Positions 2,752 to 45,807 of a stretch of DNA of 64,000 nt are shown here, piece after piece. The notes under the pieces were generated by a model. It ran no database searches. It was not told where the DNA came from and saw only the letters and a program-made list of their open reading frames with translations. The stretch is from a bacterium (lineage in GTDB: Bacteria; Patescibacteriota; Saccharimonadia; CAILAD01; BJGX01), in the NCBI GenBank assembly GCA_029778565.1, contig JAKOQC010000249.1, forward strand, positions 45,611-109,610. Reading direction: 5' to 3'. Made by a program: the position numbers and the translations under genes. The stretch's first letter is position 1, and every line of letters begins with the position of its first letter.

Positions 2752-4017
2752 ATGCAAAAACTTATTAACCAGTTGCCCAAACCCAAACCATATTCAACAC
2801 TTTATATCGATATGGATTCTTTCTTTGCTTCTGTTGAGCAGTTTTATCACCCCGAGCTTAGAGGTAAACCAGTTGGGGTGGCTACCGGTACGACTGCAGG
2901 GGCCAGTATTGTGGCTGCTTCGATAGAAGCGAAGAGAAGGGGCGTACGAGGAGGGGTAAAAATTGATGTTGCACGACGTTTGTGTCCGGGAATAGCCATT
3001 GTGAGTGATAGCCCACATTCGTATAGAGCTATTCATCGGCAAATAATGGCTGTTTTGCAGGCCACGCCATGCATGGTAGAGGCCAAAAGTATCGACGAGG
3101 CAGTACTAAGAATTCCACATTATATGCAAAATCGTAATGATATTTTTGCTTTAATAAAAGCAATAAAAGCTAATTTATACAAAATGTATAACGAACATAT
3201 ATATTGTTCTATTGGGGTATCGAGCAATATGTGGCTGGCGAAGATGGCAGCGAGTTATAAAAAGCCCAATGGTGTATATATAGTACATAATAAGCTGGCG
3301 GAATTTTATACAGATCATTCTCTCTTAGATCTTACGGGTATTAACTACCGTATGAGACGTCGTTTGCACGCCTTACAAATACTTACACCCCTCGATCTTT
3401 ATTGTGCACCACAACCATTCTTGCGTAGGTCGTTGGGGGTAGAGGGCGAGAAGTGGTATTTTCGAATGCGCGGGTATGAGGTAGATAGACGACCTTTGGT
3501 AAAACAGCGCTCGTTAAGCCATCAAGTTACTACTATTCCAGATTATCCAGATAATTTAGAAAAAATTACAACATATTTAGTAAAGATATCTGATGTTCTT
3601 GGTAGAAGATTAAGAGAAAAGCATCTAAAGGCCCGTTCTGTTTATCTTAGCCTGCGTTTAGAAAATAATACCTACTTGATGAGTGAGTTTAAAAACGTTG
3701 CAGAATTTAATGATTCATTAGTTTTAACCAATTATTTAAAAATGTTGTTAAAAAAACTAGAAATTAATGTAAGGGTTATTAAGATAACGGTAGGTGTGGG
3801 TAAAGTTAGCGAGAGTTGGCAACTCGATTTTGATAGCCATATAAAGCAGAGGCGGGCAAATACGGTGTATGCAGCACTCGATAGGATATCGCAAAAATAC
3901 AATAAGGCCGATCTGGTGCGGTCACTTAAACTGAGTAATAGTGATTTTATAGACTTAGAGCGAGTGGGTTTTGCCGGCGATATTATTCGCCATACTTCAG
4001 ATTTGGCAAACTATTAG
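2752..4017 (+). CDS. dinB: DNA polymerase IV (Y-family translesion polymerase)
   Basis: LYIDMDSFFASVEQFYHPELRGKPVGVA is the canonical Y-family N-terminal motif. SIGVSSNMWLAKMAASYKKPNGV matches the DinB conserved region. Start placed at MQKL (2752) to avoid overlap with nrdR. Confidence 0.8.
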   Translation: MQKLINQLPKPKPYSTLYIDMDSFFASVEQFYHPELRGKPVGVATGTTAGASIVAASIEAKRRGVRGGVKIDVARRLCPGIAIVSDSPHSYRAIHRQIMAVLQATPCMVEAKSIDEAVLRIPHYMQNRNDIFALIKAIKANLYKMYNEHIYCSIGVSSNMWLAKMAASYKKPNGVYIVHNKLAEFYTDHSLLDLTGINYRMRRRLHALQILTPLDLYCAPQPFLRRSLGVEGEKWYFRMRGYEVDRRPLVKQRSLSHQVTTIPDYPDNLEKITTYLVKISDVLGRRLREKHLKARSVYLSLRLENNTYLMSEFKNVAEFNDSLVLTNYLKMLLKKLEINVRVIKITVGVGKVSESWQLDFDSHIKQRRANTVYAALDRISQKYNKADLVRSLKLSNSDFIDLERVGFAGDIIRHTSDLANY

Positions 4018-4035
4018 GTATAATACATCAGATGT

Positions 4036-4112
4036 GGGTCCTTAGCTCAGTTGGCTAGAGCGCTTCCTTGACGTGGAAGAGGTCAGAGGTTCAAGTCCCC
4101 TAGGACCCACCA
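4036..4112 (+). tRNA. tRNA-Val (anticodon GAC)
   Basis: Cloverleaf by eye: acceptor GGGTCCT/AGGACCC, D arm GCTC-AGTTGGCTA-GAGC, anticodon stem CTTCC/GGAAG with loop TTGACGT (U33, anticodon GAC), T loop TTCAAGT, discriminator A and encoded CCA. One A.C mismatch in the T stem and G37 are slightly unusual. Confidence 0.7.
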
Positions 4113-4118
4113 CATTAT

Positions 4119-4141
4119 AAACACCTGCCAGGTGTTTTTTG
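4119..4141 (+). terminator. intrinsic terminator after tRNA-Val
   Basis: ACACC-TGCCA-GGTGT hairpin followed by T6. Confidence 0.5.
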
Positions 4142-4149
4142 TTATAATA

Positions 4150-5943
4150 ATGCTTATGGAAAAGCATCCTCTGCAGTCAAAATATCCTGAGCTACATACG
4201 TCTAAGCCAGTAGAGCACGAGGTTGCCCGTCAGCGCCAGCATGGTGAGCGTATTCCCAATGAGCCGGCACCCAAGCTAGAAGCTTGGCTCCGCTTATTAG
4301 AGAGAACCCACACGGGTAAAGGTGGTAGTGAGGCCCGCCAAGCCGCGCAGCCACAAATATACGAGCGCATAAAAACTCTCTACCATCGTCCAACCCAAGA
4401 GGGCGGCTATATTACCGGTCTTGATGATGCCTCTATAGAACGCTATTTACACCATCAAGCCCGGATTGCCCACGAGCAAGGCCATGGCACCATTGAAGAT
4501 ATTATGGCCCGAGCAAATGACCAAGTGCGAGCCGAGGCCAGAGAGACTATCCGAACCGACCAAGAACGCAGTCTCGATGCTTGGTTGGATTATCTTATCT
4601 CTGATGATGCCACGTACCCAATGTGGTTTAAGTACTACACCTTCCGTAACATTACTCGTCTGGCTGACTATGACAAACAAAAAGGCGAGTTTCCGAAGCG
4701 TTCTAAATCTACTACTGCACCTTTTCCAGATATTAATCGCGAAGCCTTGGCATACATGGAAGACAGCTTAGCCAAACATTATGGCCTGAAAGCCATTGAC
4801 CCAGATAATACTGCCGAGCAAATAACACCAGAGACCAAAGCGCTCTTAGATAGAGATGCTAACTTTGCCAGTCTCTACAAGCGTGCTATTGAATACGCTG
4901 CTCCCAAACACGCCGAGAGTCTTAATGTTACCGATGGTCGCTGGGTAAAGTACGACCAGACAAGTGACAACAGTAAGAGTAAAGAGCTAGCTCACTCACT
5001 GCATGGCTATGGGACGGGCTGGTGTACGGCCGGCGAAGGCATGGCTCATAGCCAACTGAGTGGCGGTGACTTTTATATCTACTACACGAAGAGTGAAGAT
5101 GGTCAGTACTCGGTACCCCGTGTGGCTATCCGGATGCAAAACCAAGCTGGCCAGCAACGCATTGCCGAGGTGCGGGGAATTGAGACCGACCAGAACATGG
5201 AAGCTGAGTTGGTACCGATTGCCGATGCTAAGCTTGCTGAGATAGACTCCGCGGGTGCTGAAAGATATAAGAAATGCTCTGAGGACATGCGCCGTCTTAC
5301 CGAAATAGACAACCTACTTAAAGACAACCCAAATGCTGAGCTCAGCAAAGACCAGCTGAGATTTCTCTACGAACTAGATAGAAAGATTGAAGGCTTTGGC
5401 TATGAGAAGGACCCACGGATTGCCGAGATCTTACAAACTCGTAACCCGAGGGCTGATTTGGCTTTTGTATTAGATCTACAGCCAGAACAAATTAGTCTGT
5501 CTAAAAGTGAAGCCTTGATCGGTAATATACTCTATCACCATGGTGATCTCGAGCTCAGCGACCTCACCACCGCCAAAGGCATATATCTGCCAGCGAATGT
5601 TGGCGGGTATCTCAGCCTTAACAGCCTCACCACCGCCGAAGGCTTACACCTACCCGAGACGATCGGTGGTGATCTCTACCTCAACGGCCTGCACACCGCC
5701 GAAGGCTTGCACCTGCCCAAGACGATCGGTGGTGGCCTCTACCTTAGTGGCCTGACCACCGCCGAAGGCTTGCACCTGCCCAAGACGATCGGTGGTGATC
5801 TCTACCTTAGTGGCCTGACCACCGCCGAAGGCTTGCACCTGCCCAAGACGATCGGTGGTGATCTCTACCTTAGTGGCCTGACCTCGGCCGAAGGTTTACA
5901 GCTACCCGAGACGATCGGTGGGTCTCTCTTCCTCGGGGCCTGA
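4150..5943 (+). CDS. hypothetical protein with C-terminal 20-aa tandem repeats (LTTAEGLHLPKTIGGDLYLSG, LRR-like); interrupted by a 1-nt frameshift, full reading frame would continue to 6155
   Basis: Long ORF. The last intact repeat is followed by a repeat copy one nucleotide short (ctcttcctcggggcctgacc versus ctctaccttagtggcctgacc), which creates TGA at 5941. In the +1 frame two further repeats and a ...KWQWFPEYYEE tail run to TAA at 6153-6155. The 4132 GTG start lies inside the tRNA terminator, so ATG 4150 or 4156 is more likely. Confidence 0.5.
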   Translation: MLMEKHPLQSKYPELHTSKPVEHEVARQRQHGERIPNEPAPKLEAWLRLLERTHTGKGGSEARQAAQPQIYERIKTLYHRPTQEGGYITGLDDASIERYLHHQARIAHEQGHGTIEDIMARANDQVRAEARETIRTDQERSLDAWLDYLISDDATYPMWFKYYTFRNITRLADYDKQKGEFPKRSKSTTAPFPDINREALAYMEDSLAKHYGLKAIDPDNTAEQITPETKALLDRDANFASLYKRAIEYAAPKHAESLNVTDGRWVKYDQTSDNSKSKELAHSLHGYGTGWCTAGEGMAHSQLSGGDFYIYYTKSEDGQYSVPRVAIRMQNQAGQQRIAEVRGIETDQNMEAELVPIADAKLAEIDSAGAERYKKCSEDMRRLTEIDNLLKDNPNAELSKDQLRFLYELDRKIEGFGYEKDPRIAEILQTRNPRADLAFVLDLQPEQISLSKSEALIGNILYHHGDLELSDLTTAKGIYLPANVGGYLSLNSLTTAEGLHLPETIGGDLYLNGLHTAEGLHLPKTIGGGLYLSGLTTAEGLHLPKTIGGDLYLSGLTTAEGLHLPKTIGGDLYLSGLTSAEGLQLPETIGGSLFLGA

Positions 5944-6042
5944 CCTCGGCCGAAGGTTTACAGCTACCCGAGACGATCGGTGGTGATCTCGACCTCAGAG
6001 GCCTGACTTCGGCCAAAGGTTTACAGCTACCTAAGACAATCG
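5563..6042 (+). repeat. eight tandem 60-bp coding repeats (two copies identical)
   Basis: Direct inspection: 60-nt periodicity ...accaccgccgaaggcttgcacctgcccaagacgatcggtggtgatctctaccttagtggcctg... Antisense and out-of-frame ORFs here are repeat artefacts. Confidence 0.85.
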
Positions 6043-6266
6043 GCGGGGTAATTAGTATCTATAATCTACCCACTAGCGAAAGGTTATTACTCGAAAAGGA
6101 GTATCCACAATTTGCAGATAAATGGCAATGGTTTCCTGAATATTACGAAGAATAAGAAGAAGAAGAACCAGAAGAGATAGAGGAATAATTAAAAATAATG
6201 GTTAAAATTGTTTGTTAAGTGCAAGATTGTCTTTATTTGCAATAAAAATAATTGCAATACTTTCTC

Positions 6267-6455
6267 TTGTATAAATACATAATTTCTTGGTATAATAACA
6301 CGTAGTTACATAAGACGAAGTAGCAGACCTCACCAACCTGCGAAGTCTCGCTGGTATATGGCGTACATATGCAAAAGAGAGATCCGCCATGGATAAACCA
6401 AGTGGAACCTCCCAGACCGTTCTGGGACTTGGTAGATAGGGCGGTTTTTGTTTTA
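6267..6455 (+). promoter_or_regulatory. thrS promoter plus structured leader with T-box-like antiterminator element and U-tract
   Basis: TTGTAT-18 nt-TATAAT at 6267-6296. In the leader: helix ACCAAG (6397-6402)/CTTGGT (6428-6433), a 7-nt bulge UGGAACC, inner helix UCCCAGA-CCGT-UCUGGGA, the whole enclosed by CCGCC (6384-6388)/GGCGG (6440-6444) and followed by UUUUUGUUUU. GUGGAACC matches the T-box core GUGGNACC. ACC (Thr) codons occur in an upstream hairpin loop GCAG-ACCUCACCAACC-CUGC. Confidence 0.35.
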
Positions 6456-6467
6456 TAAGGAGAAATC

Positions 6468-8285
6468 ATGACAGATGCAAACTTAGATAAGATTCGCCAT
6501 AGCCTAGCACATATAATGGCAGCGGCCGTGCAAAAGCTTCATCCAGAAGCTCAGTTTGGCGTAGGTCCGGTAATAGAAAATGGGTTTTATTACGATATTA
6601 AGCTCGATAACCCACTTGATGCTCAGGAGCTGAAAAAAGTACAGAAAGAGATGAAGAAACTTATCTCTGCCAAAATAGACTTTGTACGCGAAGAGTGGCC
6701 GATAGATGAGGCTATAAAGTACTTCAAAGAACATAAGCAAGGTTTTAAGGTAGAGTTACTACAAGATTTAAAAACAAAAGGTACCACGGCAGTGGCAGAT
6801 GCTGGCGATTCAGATTTAATTGACAATTCAGTTGAGAAAATTACAACAGTTAGTGTATATAAAACAGGCAATTTTATCGATCTTTGTCGTGGCCCACATA
6901 TAAAGAACACCAGCGAAATAGATGTTGATAGCTTTAAGCTCGATAAAGTAGCTGGAGCCTACTGGCGGGGTAATGAAAACAATCCTCAGATGCAACGTAT
7001 CTATGGGGTGGCTTTTGAAAACAAGGCTGGTCTCGAAGTGTATCAGCAAATGGTAATAGAAGCTGAGAAGCGAGATCATCGCAAGCTGGGTCAGCAACTC
7101 GATTTATTTACCTTTTCTGATTTGGTAGGTCCTGGTCTGCCACTGTACACACCCAAAGGTACAGTGCTTATTAATCAGCTCAAAGCCGCATTAAATGAAA
7201 TTAGTAATAAGTATGATATGCAGCCAGTATCTATTCCTCATCTGGCAAAGCTTGATTTATATAAAATCTCTGGGCATGCTGAGAAATTTGAAGATGAGTT
7301 ATTTAAGGTAGAAAGTCATTACAAGCAGGAGTTTGTGCTTAAGCCAGTAAATTGTCCTCACCATACCCAAATATACGCATCGCGGCCACGTAGTTATCGC
7401 GACTTGCCAATTCGTTATATCGAGCAAACCATGCAATATCGCGACGAAAAGCCAGGGCAAATAGGTGGCTTACAACGTACTCGTGGATTTACCGTTGATG
7501 ATGGACATACATTCTGTCGAGTTGATCAGATAAAACATGAGGCCGAGATGATAGCCGAGATTATTGAGAGCTTTTATAAAAACTTAGGATTATGGGGTAA
7601 CCATTGGGTTTCACTCTCGGTTAGAGATCCTAAAAAACCTGAGGCTTACATTGGCGAACCATCTGATTGGGATGAGGCCGAGCAAATGTTAAAAGAAATT
7701 GCCCAAGAGAGAGGCTTGGATGCTAAACGAATGGAAGGCGAGGCGGCTATTTATGGGCCAAAGCTCGATTTTATGTTTAAAGACGCTCTCGGGCGCGAAA
7801 CTCAGCTTGCCACCATTCAGCTCGATTTTGCTATGCCAAAGCGTTTTGAGCTGGTCTATACGGACGAGACAGGTAAAGAAAAGAATCCAGTTATGATCCA
7901 TCGGGCAATTTTAGGATCGTTTGAGCGCTTTATTATGTTATTAATAGAACATTTTGCCGGAGCATTTCCGGTATGGCTGGCACCAGAACAGGCAAGAGTA
8001 TTGCCGGTATCAGATAAATTTAACAAATATGCACATGAAGTTGCATTAAAACTAAAAGAAGCAGGTGTACGTGTAGAAACAGATGATAGCTCTGAATCTT
8101 TAGGCAAGAAAATTCGTAATGTTGAGATGATGAAGGTTCCATACGCACTTATTGTAGGAGAAAAAGAGCAAAAAAGCCGCTCGGTATCTGTACGCCGCTA
8201 TCAAAAAGGCGATGAAGGTCAGCAGAAAGTTAATGTATTTATAACAACATTATTGAAAAATATATCTGATAAGTCACTCAATTAG
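6468..8285 (+). CDS. thrS: threonyl-tRNA synthetase (short form lacking the N-terminal TGS domain)
   Basis: Begins with the N2 editing-domain motif RHSLAHIMAAA. Class II core with VNCPHH zinc site, HRAILGSFERFIMLLIEHFAGAFPVWLAPEQARVLPV motif 3 and C-terminal anticodon-binding domain. Confidence 0.9.
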   Translation: MTDANLDKIRHSLAHIMAAAVQKLHPEAQFGVGPVIENGFYYDIKLDNPLDAQELKKVQKEMKKLISAKIDFVREEWPIDEAIKYFKEHKQGFKVELLQDLKTKGTTAVADAGDSDLIDNSVEKITTVSVYKTGNFIDLCRGPHIKNTSEIDVDSFKLDKVAGAYWRGNENNPQMQRIYGVAFENKAGLEVYQQMVIEAEKRDHRKLGQQLDLFTFSDLVGPGLPLYTPKGTVLINQLKAALNEISNKYDMQPVSIPHLAKLDLYKISGHAEKFEDELFKVESHYKQEFVLKPVNCPHHTQIYASRPRSYRDLPIRYIEQTMQYRDEKPGQIGGLQRTRGFTVDDGHTFCRVDQIKHEAEMIAEIIESFYKNLGLWGNHWVSLSVRDPKKPEAYIGEPSDWDEAEQMLKEIAQERGLDAKRMEGEAAIYGPKLDFMFKDALGRETQLATIQLDFAMPKRFELVYTDETGKEKNPVMIHRAILGSFERFIMLLIEHFAGAFPVWLAPEQARVLPVSDKFNKYAHEVALKLKEAGVRVETDDSSESLGKKIRNVEMMKVPYALIVGEKEQKSRSVSVRRYQKGDEGQQKVNVFITTLLKNISDKSLN

Positions 8286-8291
8286 ACCAGC

Positions 8292-9155
8292 ATGTCGAAA
8301 ATGATTACTATTCTTGGCCCAACAGCATCTGGAAAGACTGTTATGGCGGTAGAACTAGCTAAAAAGTTTAATGGTGAGATAGTTTGTGCCGATAGTCGCA
8401 CTATCTATAAGAATATGAATATCGGTACGGCTAAACCTACAAAAGTAGAACAACAAAACGTTCCTCATCATCTATTAGATATCGTTTTGCCAGGTGAAGT
8501 ATTTAGTGTATTAGAATTTCAAAAGCTAGCAAGGTCTTGTATTGCAGATATTCAAAAGAGAGGTAAGCTACCGTTCTTAGTTGGCGGGAGCGGACTCTAT
8601 ATAGATTCGGTTTTATTTAATTACTCATTTCAGCGCAGCTCTGTGGGCAGAGTAGTGACCAAAAATTTATCGCTACAACAATTGCAGAGTAGAGTAAAGG
8701 CAGAGTTTCCAGAAATTGAATTAAATAATTCAGACATACATAATCAACGTCGGTTAGAGCAAATCTTAAGTCGTGGGATGGTAAAAAGTGATGACAGAAA
8801 AAAACAGAAAATTGATAGCTTAGTGTTAGGTTTGGACATAAAAATACCAGTATTAAAGAAAAATATAGCCCAAAGAACAGAATCTATGTTGAATAAAGGT
8901 TTTATTCAAGAAGTAGAAAATATCATCTCTACGTTTGGTGAGGATTGCCCGCAATTACATACAACCGGATACAAAGAAGTTTTAGATTTTATTCATTCTG
9001 GCACAACCAAAAACCAGCTGGAACTACAAATTAACTCGGCTACCTACCAACTAGCTAAGAAGCAAATAACTTGGTTTAAACGCAACCCTGATATTATTTG
9101 GGTGAATACCTTTGCAGAGGCAGAAAGAAACGTATCAGATTACCTTAAGCTTTGA
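8292..9155 (+). CDS. miaA: tRNA dimethylallyltransferase
   Basis: ILGPTASGKT P-loop, then ...VCADSRTIYKNMNIGTAKPT, typical of MiaA. Confidence 0.85.
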   Translation: MSKMITILGPTASGKTVMAVELAKKFNGEIVCADSRTIYKNMNIGTAKPTKVEQQNVPHHLLDIVLPGEVFSVLEFQKLARSCIADIQKRGKLPFLVGGSGLYIDSVLFNYSFQRSSVGRVVTKNLSLQQLQSRVKAEFPEIELNNSDIHNQRRLEQILSRGMVKSDDRKKQKIDSLVLGLDIKIPVLKKNIAQRTESMLNKGFIQEVENIISTFGEDCPQLHTTGYKEVLDFIHSGTTKNQLELQINSATYQLAKKQITWFKRNPDIIWVNTFAEAERNVSDYLKL

Positions 9156-9167
9156 TACAATAAGTGT

Positions 9168-10553
9168 ATGAAAAAAACCGCAGCAATTTTGGCTGCCAAA
9201 GTAGTTAAGTCGGCATCACGCATAAAAAAAACCGCAGCCACAGCTGCTCCGGGTTATTTGGCTGAGCGGATTGATCCAAACCTGTTAAAAAAGTTGGGTA
9301 GCATTAATTTTCCTGATGGTGTTGTGTTGGTTACAGGTACAAATGGTAAGACTACTACGACAAAGGTATTAGCCGACGTCTTGCGAAATGGGGATATTTC
9401 TTTTGTGAACAATCGCGCCGGTTCTAACCTGAGCAGAGGTGTTATTAGCTCGATACTGACCGAAGCGAATTTAAGAGGTTTTACCCAGGCACGCGTTGGA
9501 TTATTTGAGGTAGATGAAGCCTATTTACCAGAAGTGGCTGCCGCCCTACAGCCCAAAATGGTGGTGGTGACAAATTTATTTCGAGATCAACTTGATAGAT
9601 ATGGAGAGCTGGATAGTATTGCCAATAAGTTTCGGCAAGCGTTTAAGAATCTGCATTCTACTACTTTGGTCTTGAATGCTGATGATCCATTGGTGGCTAG
9701 CCTTGGTATGAAACTCAGTGGAAGTCTAAAGGTCTTGTACTTTGGTATATCTGATAAGTCGGCTTTTAGGGCATTACAACACGATAACAGTGCCGATAGT
9801 ATTGTTGACCCATTTAGTGGTGATACATTGCGCTATACACACCGGTATTTTGGCCATATTGGTCTTTATACTACCAAATCACATTCGTTTAGCCGACCCA
9901 AGCCACAAATAAATGTTACTAAACTAATAAAATCTAGTGAGAAAAGTATAAAAATAAATGTAAAAACTACAACGGAATTACTTTCCGTATCTGTAAATCT
10001 TTCAGGAAACTATAATATATACAATGTTCTGCCAGCATTTGCCACGGCACAATTATTTAGAATAAATAACACCATAGTTTTGCAGACACTTGCCAATCTT
10101 AGTGCTGCTTTTGGTAGAACCGAGGCAATGCAAATAGATAAGACAATTTTCGACCTTTATCTAATTAAAAATCCAACAGGTTTTAACCAAGTGATACAGT
10201 CATTTATACAGAAAGACTCTAAATGCCCACTTATACTTGCTATTAACGATAATATTGCTGATGGACGTGATGTATCTTGGTTGTGGGATTGTGCAATTGA
10301 AGATTTTGCATCTAGAGTAGGCCCCGTAATTCTTACAGGCACCCGGGCTCTGGATATGCAACTCCGGCTAATATATGCTGGCTATAAAGGCAAGATAATA
10401 ACCGAGACAAATGCCAAAAATGCACTTAAAACTGCTCTTGGGTTGGCAAAGAATAATCGAGTAATAGTACTTCCTACATATACTGCTATGTTATCTCTTA
10501 GATCTCTTATTAATGAAGCCAACGATGAAACCAGCAAGGAGTTTTGGCAATGA
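9168..10553 (+). CDS. murT: Mur-ligase-family lipid II isoglutaminyl synthase subunit MurT
   Basis: VTGTNGKTTTTKVLADVL Mur-ligase P-loop and central domain, DUF1727-like C-terminus. Immediately followed by, and overlapping, a GatD-type amidotransferase. Confidence 0.7.
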   Translation: MKKTAAILAAKVVKSASRIKKTAATAAPGYLAERIDPNLLKKLGSINFPDGVVLVTGTNGKTTTTKVLADVLRNGDISFVNNRAGSNLSRGVISSILTEANLRGFTQARVGLFEVDEAYLPEVAAALQPKMVVVTNLFRDQLDRYGELDSIANKFRQAFKNLHSTTLVLNADDPLVASLGMKLSGSLKVLYFGISDKSAFRALQHDNSADSIVDPFSGDTLRYTHRYFGHIGLYTTKSHSFSRPKPQINVTKLIKSSEKSIKINVKTTTELLSVSVNLSGNYNIYNVLPAFATAQLFRINNTIVLQTLANLSAAFGRTEAMQIDKTIFDLYLIKNPTGFNQVIQSFIQKDSKCPLILAINDNIADGRDVSWLWDCAIEDFASRVGPVILTGTRALDMQLRLIYAGYKGKIITETNAKNALKTALGLAKNNRVIVLPTYTAMLSLRSLINEANDETSKEFWQ

Positions 10554-42984: not shown

Positions 42985-45807
42985 ATGGAGAGGTATAATG
43001 CAGCACAAAAGCAGGCGATAGCCCATGGTGAGGGGCCAGCTTTAGTTGTGGCCGGGGCTGGTACAGGTAAGACAGCTGTTATTACACAGAGAATACTTCG
43101 ATTAATAGAATCTCGCCGAGTGGCTCCAGAAAAGATATTGGCTTTAACATTTACCGATAAAGCCGCTGCAGAAATGCAAGATAGAGTAGACGATATATCG
43201 CCCATTGGATATATCGATAGTACAATAACTACATTTCATAGTTTTTGCGCTGAAATATTACGTGGTTATGGGGTAGAGATGGGCCTAAGTACTGATTTTA
43301 CAATTATTTCGGGCTATCAACAGGTAGTAATTTTGCAGTCTGTAATAAACGAACTTGACCTGGTTTACTACAAAACCAATAGTAGCCCATATAGCTTTGT
43401 AAATGCAGTACTTGGTTTTCTGGGACGCCTGAAAGATGAGGGGATAACCGAGCAAAAGTTTGCCCAATTTGTTAAACAGAGCAAGCTAGAGGGTGAAGAA
43501 AAAGAGCGAAACGTAGAGCTTTCTCATATCTTTACGGCTTTCGAAAAAGCCAAGCTAGAACAAAATTGTCTTGATTACTCAGACTTATTGGTCTGTTGCT
43601 TGGAGCTTTTTCAGTTAAGAAAAGAGGTTTTAAAGTATTTTCAACAACAATATGAATATATTTTGGTTGATGAATACCAGGATACTAACTACGTTCAGAA
43701 CGAAATAGTAAAAATATTATCAAAAAAACATCGAAATTTGTTTGTTGTTGGTGATGATGATCAGTCAATTTACCGATTTAGAGGTGCAGCTATTAGTAAT
43801 ATATTGCACTTTATCGATGATTTTCCGGATGCGAAGCAATTTGTACTTACTCAAAACTATCGTTCCACACAGCAAATTCTAGATGTTAGTTATCGTCTTA
43901 TTAACCATAACAATCCCTATCGACTAGAAACTCAAAACAATATCAACAAAAAGTTATCATCTACCCAAAAAGGTAAGGCACCAGAAGTAAATTTCCTTGC
44001 AACTCAGCCCATGGAAGCAGAATGGGTAGTTAATAAGATAGAAAGTCTCATTAAATCCGGTACCCCCTCGAATGAAATTGCTATTCTCTTACGTAAGAAC
44101 AATCAAGCCGAAGTCTTTACCCATCTATTAGAGAAAAAATCTATTTCTTATGAGCTTAGTCAGAACAAAAAACTCTTTGAGCAAGAGCCAGTAAGGTCAC
44201 TTATTAATCTTATAAAGGCTATTAATAACCCAGACGATTCACAAGCACTCTATCTGGTATTGGTTGGGCACATCTATTCTTTGCCAATCGATGAAATAGT
44301 AAGTGCAAGTGCGGCTGCACACAGGGCACGGATAAGCCTTGAAGAATATCTAAATACAAGTAATGAAAGCCCAAATGGCGGCAAACAAGCGCTAGATGAT
44401 ATTAAAGAACTACGCCAAAATGCGCTTACACTAACAGGAGGGCAAATACTTTACTCCTATCTAGAAAAATATCATATTATTCAAAATTTAGTAGATAAAT
44501 CTGAGTCTGATTATAATGCTGTTTTGCAGTTACAATACTTATCGCAATTTTTCTCGCTCATTCGAGACTACGAAAGGACTGTTGCAACCCCCAATCTCTA
44601 TGGCTTGTATCAGTATTTCGAATTAATGCATCAAAGTGAGGTAGATATTGTCTCAGAAGTAGCACCGCTTGATCAGTCAGCTGTGCAGATATTGACGGTA
44701 CATAAAGCAAAAGGGCTTGAGTTTAGTGCTGTATTTTTAGTTGATATGGTAGAGCAGACATTTCCAGCCACACGGCGCCCAGAACCTATTAGAATACCAG
44801 ATGGCCTACTAGAGGGCAGTGATAGTGCTGATATCAACTGGCATTTACTTGAAGAAAGACGGTTGTGCTACGTTGCTATGACAAGAGCAAAAAACACTCT
44901 CTATATAACAGGTTCGGCTGATCATGGTGGCAAGCGATCCAAAAAACCCTCCCGATTCATTACTGAAGCAACAAATTATACTCCTAAGAAATCAGAACTT
45001 TCTCAGATAAAATCGGCCTTTGCTGATTTTCAACCCACGCTAGCAGCAAAAACCAGTAAGAATTTTGATCCTACGCAGAAGTACTTTGATGAAGGTGGCT
45101 GGCTTCATTTGAGTGCCAATCAAGTAGCTGACTATCTGCGTTCGCCCAAAGAATTTTGGTATTTTGATGTTTTACAACTACCCAAAGGCCCGTTTCATTC
45201 TCTGGTATATGGTTCGGCTATACATGCCGCTATAGAGTATTATTATAGCCGTGTAATACGTGATCAAAGGGTAAATCTGAATGAGTTACATACAGTATTT
45301 GATAATTCTTGGAAGAGTGAAGGGTTTGTGTCGTTTCAGCACGAACAAGCAAGGCGTAAAAAGGGGAAAGAAGTGCTAGGACGGTTTTACAAGGAGCAAC
45401 AAGCCAAAAAAGACTTCCCTAAATGGGTAGAAAAAGCATTTACACTGCGATTACCAGAAGTAAAAATGGTTATCCGGGGTAGATATGATGCAGTTTTTGA
45501 TAGGCAGGGAAAAATAGAGATAAGTGACTTTAAAACTGGTGAGGTTAAGGATGAAAAAGCTGCTCAGAAGAAGCTAAAAGACAGTATACAAATGGCGATT
45601 TACGCCTTAGCGTGGGAAAAGATAGCCAAAACACCGGTAGAATCTCTCAGTTTAAACTTTCTTGAAAAGTCTATTCTTGTGAAGCAGCAACCAATAGACG
45701 AAAGTGTGGTTATTGCTAAGTTAAATAAAGTGCGCGATGGTATACTAAGTAAAGAATTTAGTCAGAGTGGTGAAAGTAGAGTAAATTTTGGAAGTTTTAT
45801 CGAATGA
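42985..45807 (+). CDS. UvrD/PcrA-like SF1 helicase fused to a C-terminal PD-(D/E)xK (RecB/Cas4-like) nuclease domain
   Basis: Walker A AGAGTGKT, helicase motifs (YILVDEYQDTN, VVGDDDQSIYRFRGA, QNYRST, VHKAKGLEF). C-terminus GRYDAVFDRQGKIEISDFKTGEV...QMAIYALAW is a D...D/E-x-K nuclease core with trailing Q..Y motif. Confidence 0.7.
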   Translation: MERYNAAQKQAIAHGEGPALVVAGAGTGKTAVITQRILRLIESRRVAPEKILALTFTDKAAAEMQDRVDDISPIGYIDSTITTFHSFCAEILRGYGVEMGLSTDFTIISGYQQVVILQSVINELDLVYYKTNSSPYSFVNAVLGFLGRLKDEGITEQKFAQFVKQSKLEGEEKERNVELSHIFTAFEKAKLEQNCLDYSDLLVCCLELFQLRKEVLKYFQQQYEYILVDEYQDTNYVQNEIVKILSKKHRNLFVVGDDDQSIYRFRGAAISNILHFIDDFPDAKQFVLTQNYRSTQQILDVSYRLINHNNPYRLETQNNINKKLSSTQKGKAPEVNFLATQPMEAEWVVNKIESLIKSGTPSNEIAILLRKNNQAEVFTHLLEKKSISYELSQNKKLFEQEPVRSLINLIKAINNPDDSQALYLVLVGHIYSLPIDEIVSASAAAHRARISLEEYLNTSNESPNGGKQALDDIKELRQNALTLTGGQILYSYLEKYHIIQNLVDKSESDYNAVLQLQYLSQFFSLIRDYERTVATPNLYGLYQYFELMHQSEVDIVSEVAPLDQSAVQILTVHKAKGLEFSAVFLVDMVEQTFPATRRPEPIRIPDGLLEGSDSADINWHLLEERRLCYVAMTRAKNTLYITGSADHGGKRSKKPSRFITEATNYTPKKSELSQIKSAFADFQPTLAAKTSKNFDPTQKYFDEGGWLHLSANQVADYLRSPKEFWYFDVLQLPKGPFHSLVYGSAIHAAIEYYYSRVIRDQRVNLNELHTVFDNSWKSEGFVSFQHEQARRKKGKEVLGRFYKEQQAKKDFPKWVEKAFTLRLPEVKMVIRGRYDAVFDRQGKIEISDFKTGEVKDEKAAQKKLKDSIQMAIYALAWEKIAKTPVESLSLNFLEKSILVKQQPIDESVVIAKLNKVRDGILSKEFSQSGESRVNFGSFIE

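Follow-up and report, generated by a model that had tools for sequence, protein, structure and literature searches.

In bacteria of the Candidate Phyla Radiation (CPR) the target proteins of diversity-generating retroelements (DGRs) are usually without recognisable transmembrane or conserved domains, and both the identity of these targets and the question whether they are truly non-membrane proteins were left open (Roux et al. 2021, PMC8144416). Fusions of DGR-diversified lectin-fold domains to effectors were proposed to sense invaders inside the cell (Kaur et al. 2021, PMC8195603), and the loci of leucine-rich repeat (LRR) proteins in Flavobacterium psychrophilum are known to recombine (Altae-Tran et al. 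2020, PMC10392669). In this work we have analysed a gene located at positions 4150 to 6155 of a 64,000-nucleotide stretch of DNA (hereafter the window; positions 45,611 to 109,610 of contig JAKOQC010000249.1, assembly GCA_029778565.1) from a bacterium of the Saccharimonadia, in which a large conserved N-terminal domain (N-domain) is joined to a tandem array of apparently LRR-related repeats, and in which the reading frame is broken within the array by the lack of a single nucleotide.

The protein encoded by this gene shares its N-domain with DGR targets of CPR, but it has a repeat array and not a domain bearing a variable repeat (VR), and the reverse transcriptase (RT), the template repeat (TR) and the VR are all missing from the window gene. 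The family to which it belongs fits the description of domain-less CPR DGR targets (PMC8144416). The intracellular sensors (PMC8195603) provide a precedent for a cytoplasmic reading of the protein, they are not evidence for it. The likeness to the LRR loci of F. psychrophilum (PMC10392669) lies in the near-identical units, in the variation restricted to few positions and in the unit number differing between relatives; those loci, however, encode cell-surface proteins in tandem gene arrays, whereas the window holds a single gene without signal peptide, with a large unrelated N-domain and in a Saccharibacteria-like genome.

According to the open reading frame (ORF) list and its translation, the upstream reading frame begins on the forward strand at ATG 4150 or 4156 and runs to a premature TGA at 5941-5943, which is created by the frameshift; ATG 4156 is the start both in the product deposited at NCBI (P0002, 595 aa) and in the orthologues. 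The downstream frame (5937..6155, forward strand), delimited by translation, tblastn and the substitution analysis, consists of 72 codons without internal stop and comprises the rest of repeat unit 7, unit 8, a degenerate unit 9 and a C-terminal cap before TAA 6153-6155. When one G was inserted at the frameshift site CTCGGGGCC (5932..5940), a single frame of 668 aa was obtained, in which the unit GGSLFLGGLTSAEG was restored and which ended in LPTSERLLLEKEYPQFADKWQWFPEYYEE at TAA 6153-6155. This repaired protein found its residues 596-667 at 100% identity in the downstream frame when it was searched against the window by tblastn, and it is matched by P0002 at 100% identity over 89% coverage. 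The restored unit is of a type also found in homologues (e.g. P0006), and the cap with its tail LPTSERLLLEKEYPQFADKWQWFPEYYEE (6066..6152), which is lost from the truncated product, is conserved in the homologues P0001 and P0005.

The closest homologue, P0001, is an intact protein of 740 aa from Candidatus Saccharibacteria STL-PAT10 with 84% identity, and its gene (locus L001) is syntenic with ours, lying between the gene of a DinB-type polymerase (dinB) with a tRNA-Val on one side and thrS on the other. Since the repaired frame gives a family-typical unit and a tail of the same type as in P0001 and P0005, and since the syntenic orthologue is intact, the region 4150-6155 is best read as one gene and not as two features. 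In the DNA alignment with L001 one 1-nt gap falls on the window side, which reads CTCGG-GGCC where the orthologue has CTCAGCAGCC; this places the missing base in or next to the run of four G at 5935-5938. The orthologue reads CAGCAGCC at this site, and no G tract is conserved there. Much of this had been anticipated by the original prediction, made from the letters of the window without database searches: a unit shorter by one nucleotide does lead to the TGA at 5941, and the +1 frame does continue for two more units, its translation from 5937 ending in ...KEYPQFADKWQWFPEYYEE at TAA 6153-6155. Comparison with orthologues, which had been recommended there, pointed in the same direction, because the two closest ones (P0001 and P0005) do not end at the position of the stop and run into the same type of C-terminal tail (SERLLLQKEYPQFADKWQWYPVYEEEEEEEEPEEIEE).

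The TAA at 6153 itself replaces a GAG or GAA of the orthologues (GAG in the alignment with L001). Behind it stand ten codons left over from the longer frame (EEEEPEEIEE) and then the ancestral TAA; this stretch (6156-6188) does not differ from L001 in its DNA, and the whole segment 6153..6188 was recognized from this alignment together with the C-termini of P0001 and P0005. It is a second, minor truncation, by which only part of an acidic tail is removed.

The repeats form a tandem array far beyond chance. Tandem Repeats Finder (TRF) reported a period of 63 with 6.7 copies and 87% matches at 5624-6043, and eight full units of 63 nt (21 aa, consensus GGxLxLxxLTSAEGLxLPxxI) could be delimited on the forward strand at 5539..6041 from TRF, a unit table with identity matrix and the unit spacing; a degenerate ninth unit (6042-6104) runs into the C-terminal cap. 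The array of eight units described in the original prediction was therefore recovered, its period of 60 nt and 20 residues was not, and the consensus given there had itself 21 residues. The spacing from unit start to unit start is 63, 63, 63, 63, 63, 62 and 63 nt, the short one belonging to unit 7 (5917-5978, 62 nt), so that about 6.8 units precede the TGA and two follow it. In one register two units are identical, as had been noted (5744-5806 = 5807-5869); the longest exact internal duplicate is of 84 nt (5737-5820 = 5800-5883), and a 47-nt exact repeat at an offset of 62 brackets the lesion. The 63-nt period recurs in 16 arrays from other genomes, and the tail type L+xKYPxLAxKI is conserved across the repeat-bearing subfamily.

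When 47 units of the window and of its nearest relatives were compared, variability was seen to peak at the x positions of GGxLxLxx, reaching 2.0-2.5 bits there and staying at or below about 1 bit at the other positions (entropy maxima at unit positions 16, 18, 20 and 21). The number of units ranges from 4 to about 19 among the fetched homologues, and in the three closest from 4 (P0005) to 11-12 (P0001 and P0003). Variable strand residues combined with a changing unit number are what a binding surface of LRR-like type that undergoes recombination would show, the binding itself being a prediction. The recurring LPxT(I)GG string, to which attention had been drawn, did not prove to be a conserved LPxTG: at this place the family consensus is LPxxIGG (LPQSIGG, LPERVGG, LPDSIGG), where Thr is not conserved. 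A sortase signal of the LPxTG type was also considered and rejected, as the motif is internal and repeated, its Thr is not family-conserved and no membrane anchor follows it.

The codons behind the lesion bear the marks of a protein-coding sequence. Compared with L001, the 72 downstream codons differ by 21 nonsynonymous and 20 synonymous changes, which corresponds to a ratio of nonsynonymous to synonymous substitution rates (dN/dS, omega) of 0.23 at a dS of 0.60, and nonsynonymous changes are fewer than expected under neutrality (Fisher p 3e-5). In the N-domain the same comparison gave a dN/dS of 0.10 at a dS of 0.51, which shows strong constraint on this part of the protein. An omega of 0.23 implies that the downstream frame kept its coding function during almost the whole period since the split from the L001 genome, and purifying selection in these codons leaves two readings of the lesion, as very recent on the scale of a dS of about 0.5 or as not real. 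As to the features of a pseudogene, the ORF is disrupted relative to intact orthologues, while relaxed selection after the lesion is not seen.

In our opinion the best joint explanation, to which we give credence and doubt in equal parts, is that unit 7 of the gene has recently lost one nucleotide, through a point indel and neither through repeat slippage nor through a phase switch, and that the gene would encode a modular recognition protein; that the lesion is a real mutation at all is likewise a matter in which the balance is about level. The lesion is taken as genuine rather than the product of poor sequence because the neighbouring ORFs are clean, the coding density of the window is 89% and a second change that shortens the ORF is present at 6153. 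At each neighbouring position the longest ORF is approximately or exactly as long as the gene called at L001, if differences in ORF starts and one gene cut by the window edge are allowed for. Of ten short adjacent ORFs, nine each proved to be a complete member of a Pfam family of its own and one had no match; none of them looks like half of a split gene, and no other frameshift was found in the 64-kb window among the candidate ORF pairs checked.

Several observations weigh against this joint explanation. The lesion lies in a G run flanked by the 47-nt exact repeats, arrays of this kind are hard to assemble (nine contigs end inside one and four arrays contain N runs), and purifying selection in the downstream codons fits an artefact equally well. 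As regards the protein, the window array gave no match to Pfam LRR models at E<=0.1, the structure model of P0001 gave no significant LRR match in a Foldseek search against the PDB (LRRC8C, E 2.7), and the functional model is drawn from architecture.

The strongest rival is that the missing base is an artefact of sequencing, consensus building or assembly and that the organism possesses an intact gene for a protein of about 668 aa; we regard this as a serious candidate that falls somewhat short of an even balance. It would account for a downstream frame that is open over 72 codons, conserved and under purifying selection, for the position of the lesion within GGGG between exact repeats, and for the fact that no other array of the family is frameshifted. 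The 84-nt exact duplicate inside the array speaks for it as well, and so does the poor assembly of such arrays in general: 13 of about 29 arrays in other metagenome-assembled genomes (MAGs) are interrupted, nine of them by contig ends inside the 63-nt array (L008, L010, L017, L023, L028, L030, L046, L067 and L077) and four by N runs (L040, L042, L054 and L058). As so many MAG contigs break or gap inside arrays, copy numbers of the family arrays in public assemblies have to be considered unreliable. On the other side, no other split gene was seen in the window, the ORFs next to the gene are close in length to their counterparts at the orthologous locus, the pairs of short ORFs that were checked proved to be complete members of separate families, and a second truncating change (TAA 6153) is found close by. 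Single-base indels are, moreover, uncommon in short-read consensus sequences, though the platform of this assembly may differ. Two metagenome scans, with a 22-mer of the frameshift unit and a 22-mer of the conserved tail, found no DNA of the same or a close strain, the first of them requiring GGGG and being blind to the intact CTCGGNGGCC.

Slipped-strand phase variation of a surface or effector-like protein had been offered in the original prediction, where the frameshift would represent one state of a reversible switch. In favour of such a switch it can be mentioned that the lesion is in a short G run within a repetitive gene and that the family varies and is present in several copies in some genomes (L004 and L005 on one contig, P0001 and P0121 in one genome). 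The known phase-variable contingency genes, with the homopolymer and tetranucleotide tracts of Neisseria and Haemophilus, resemble the window gene in that the ORF of a gene containing repeats is interrupted when its length changes by 1 nt. At contingency loci, however, slippage at a high rate needs tracts far longer than G4, and the window gene has neither a long homopolymer (runs of five or more G or C are absent) nor a short-unit tract, its unit is a multiple of three and the frameshift does not recur in relatives. Because the G run is of four bases only and gain or loss of 63-nt units preserves the frame, slipped-strand phase variation is unsupported. None of the 16 other arrays is out of frame and all their spacings are multiples of 63 nt; in L058, which was considered as a second frameshifted array and discarded, the change of frame is due to an N-run scaffold gap. 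The orthologue, with CAGCAGCC at the site, keeps no G tract there. Neither a signal peptide nor a membrane segment was recognized in the window protein, the N-terminus being hydrophilic by inspection, and on this count a surface or effector-like nature is not supported. We thus consider a phase switch very improbable. Programmed -1 ribosomal frameshifting, by which both frames would be joined into a full-length protein, can be given hardly any weight: the frames do overlap at the stop codon and the downstream frame is conserved, but inspection of CTC GGG GCC TGA reveals no X XXY YYZ slippery heptamer, and the orthologues encode the protein in a single frame.

The N-domain (aa 1-464, 4150..5541 on the forward strand, delimited by family search, alignment and AlphaFold2 (AF2) model) had been described as an unassigned region of about 470 aa, and this was borne out: neither as a single sequence nor as a profile of 73 sequences did its approximately 464 residues match Pfam, NCBIfam, PHROGs, PADLOC or the sequences of the PDB. 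Matches to Luciferase_3H, Thr_synth_N and Glutaredoxin2_C in the library searches were set aside as spurious products of low complexity. The family is nevertheless a large one, with 1,774 clusters at 50% identity at E<=1e-3 and 962 at E<=1e-30 among 1.84 billion representatives, and more than 1,000 matches of the N-domain in a collection at 90% identity. At least 572 genome loci carry the N-domain, nearly all of them in MAGs of Patescibacteria/CPR, together with a few bins labelled Bacilli, Tenericutes, Nanoarchaeota and others. The invariant or near-invariant motifs of the domain are DQxxSLDxWxDYL, YPxWFKYY, APFPDxNREALAY and GxGTGWCTAGE, to which GDFYVYY, PRxAIRM, EVRGIxxxQN and GFGYxxDPRI can be added. 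Across the family the N-domain is fused to different C-termini, and in one protein of 1585 aa (P0147) it is internal, at residues 888-1295.

Some Saccharimonadia genomes contain two or more paralogues: two stand about 8 kb apart on one contig (L004 and L005, JBCLLN010000005.1), and in STL-PAT10 two are separated by about 550 kb (L001 and L002 on JAXLZU010000001.1, proteins P0001 and P0121). In the 64-kb window a tblastn search with the repaired protein found no paralogue elsewhere. Family members in MAGs labelled Bacilli, Tenericutes or Candidatus Onthousia (L043, L047, L049, L052, L066 and L075; P0113 and P0120), which have 21-aa units of the form LTSAEGLENLQxIGGxAxF that reach the Pfam LRR_5 threshold in P0113 and P0120, suggest either spread outside the Patescibacteria or mis-binning. 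An in-frame stop was seen in the N-domain of the Parcubacteria genome Greene0416_36 (L007, about 6001-7700) just after GTGWCTAGESTAQA, and seven repeat units follow without a change of frame; the stop could be a recoded one or the mark of a nonsense pseudogene.

The AF2 model of the N-domain (predicted local distance difference test, pLDDT, 91; predicted template modelling score, pTM, 0.79) consists of helical bundles around an alpha/beta core of the order beta-alpha-alpha-beta-beta-beta-alpha at residues of about 263-365 (4936..5244, forward strand), in which the GTGWCTAGE and EVRG motifs are located. This core shows a weak resemblance to the N-terminal two thirds of the GNAT fold and may be called partially GNAT-like on the strength of the model. 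Foldseek gave no significant match of the N-domain model in the PDB; sequence identity to the GNAT acetyltransferases compared (PDB 4lua and 9cr5, and the TacT/AtaT toxins) is 3-14%, with Foldseek scores that are not significant, and Pfam and NCBIfam returned no acetyltransferase match. The R/QxxGxG/A sequence of motif A is not seen, as the loop between beta4 and alpha3 reads EVRGIETDQN by inspection, and the beta5-alpha4-beta6 part is absent from the model, so that the fold falls short of a complete GNAT. Filing the protein as an acetyltransferase was rejected for the absence of the cofactor-site strands from the model and of a visible motif A. A papain- or NlpC-like cysteine peptidase, considered for the GTGWCTAGE motif, was likewise discarded, since by inspection the alignment contains no invariant or near-invariant His.

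The LRR-like character of the repeats, which had been put forward on their periodicity, received indirect support. A direct Pfam match is missing, but the homologues P0113 and P0120 share the N-domain and carry 21-residue units of the type LTSAEGLExLQxIGGxAxFxx, with which they pass the LRR_5 model at 32.9 and 43.5 bits (threshold 27.7; L081 stays below it). When blocks of four units of the window type were aligned by hhalign with four of the P0113/P0120 type, a probability of 99.2% and an E of 2.1e-19 were obtained in the same register, both profiles being short, periodic and of low diversity. On this comparison the window units are homologous to the BspA-type LRR_5 arrays. In the model of the orthologue P0001 (pLDDT 88) each unit contributes two very short strands and the array is a regular solenoid with a pLDDT of 90-96, followed by two closing helices (703-712, SERLLLQKEY, and 714-719, QFADKW) and a disordered acidic tail; the repeats are thus predicted to form a beta-solenoid closed by a two-helix cap.

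BspA-type LRRs (Pfam LRR_5, PF13306) and the window units have in common tandem units of about 21-23 residues, which in the window protein are predicted to form a solenoid, and in the window units the variable residues alternate with Leu on one strand. In contrast to the BspA type, the conserved Asn/Cys of LxxLxLxxN/C is absent from the window units, although LxLxxL is present (consensus LTSAEGLxLPxxIGGxLxLxx), and each window unit has an LP and a GG turn. BspA-type proteins are, furthermore, typically surface proteins, whereas by inspection the window protein has no signal peptide.

The relation to DGRs became apparent from the neighbour genes, which were clustered over 80 loci fetched with the N-domain profile. 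In 19 of these the family gene is adjoined by the gene of a protein of about 320 aa, which is an RT (RVT_1, E 1e-16 to 1e-22). At three loci (L033, L036 and L044) the last approximately 112 nt of the family gene are repeated 410-440 nt downstream: VR and TR are found at 7844-7954 and 8253-8363 in L033, where the RT gene occupies 8691-9662, at 7840-7952 and 8280-8392 in L036, and at 7842-7954 and 8254-8366 in L044. The mismatches between the two copies fall almost exclusively on A of the downstream copy (23/25 in L033, 16/16 in L036 and 7/8 in L044). By their sequence these repeats are classical variable and template repeats, and the genes can be regarded as bona fide DGR targets. To these targets the N-domain of the window protein is 41-43% identical over aa 8-448 (E about 1e-98). 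Among 12 loci with members of the repeat type no RT was found nearby; tblastn with two family-linked RTs detected none in the 64-kb window, and the segment 5481-6200 has no second copy elsewhere in the window that could serve as a template.

The following model can be proposed for the gene product. It would be a cytoplasmic-looking modular protein of about 668 aa, in which the conserved N-domain of about 460 aa is joined to a beta-solenoid of 21-residue LRR-related repeats. The solenoid would present a changeable ligand-binding surface, with the variable residues on one strand (the x of GGxLxLxx), and the number and order of the units would shift by recombination between near-identical 63-nt units and not by retro-mutagenesis, the resulting surface delivering or regulating the conserved N-terminal module. 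Elsewhere in the family a DGR-hypermutated C-terminal domain would fill the role of the solenoid. The architecture accordingly suggests, as the likely role, a variable recognition of ligands that is coupled to a conserved module. The 1-nt deletion would truncate the protein after about 6.8 units and remove two units and the cap, and the copy shortened in this way has probably lost activity or stability and would be a pseudogene in the making.

With more reserve we put forward the idea that this almost exclusively patescibacterial and undescribed family is a cytoplasmic adaptive recognition system, where an N-module with a GNAT-like core is combined with interchangeable hypervariable binding domains, either DGR-diversified or made of a unit-recombined LRR-like array; it is a tentative proposal, which we hold to be rather unlikely in this complete form. 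If it were true, two routes would lead to one end, for example the sensing of phage or host molecules in episymbiotic bacteria, and the frameshifted copy would be a discarded specificity. The frameshift alone is of small weight, whether it reflects a problem of annotation or assembly or the decay of a single copy of a rapidly evolving gene. Of greater use is the family, with about 1,800 clusters, nearly all of them from ultra-small Patescibacteria, without a curated model, and with an N-domain that occurs together with either a DGR domain or an LRR-like array; the confident model of the N-domain and the repeat-based sister architecture provide a concrete object for experiments on how symbionts recognise partners or invaders. 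As far as the searched literature shows, this family context is undescribed in this form, and we find it moderately interesting.

Upstream of the gene a tRNA-Val(GAC) was located on the forward strand at 4036..4112 (ARAGORN; Rfam tRNA, 63.5 bits), after which the terminator scan marked a terminator-like hairpin with a T run at 4119-4137, and the same arrangement is present at the orthologous locus L001. The gene constitutes a GC-rich island (positions 4001-6200, 47-53% GC against 35-43% in the flanks), with 48.8% in the N-domain and 59.2% in the array, the whole window having 41.0%; the sign of the GC skew also reverses here. A GC-rich island standing directly after tRNA-Val may reflect an old horizontal acquisition, the orthologue being at the same position. 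Of the intergenic region upstream of thrS (6156-6467) the first 105 nt or so (6156-6260), which are the part covered by the alignment, are approximately 95% identical to L001, which is above the neighbouring coding sequence. Rfam revealed neither a T-box nor another family upstream of thrS, and this conserved stretch may be an undescribed leader or regulatory element. At L001, but not in the window, an insertion of about 90 nt just upstream of the intact tRNA contains a second copy of the first 20 nt of tRNA-Val (5790-5809 and 5880-5899) and looks like an att-like footprint.

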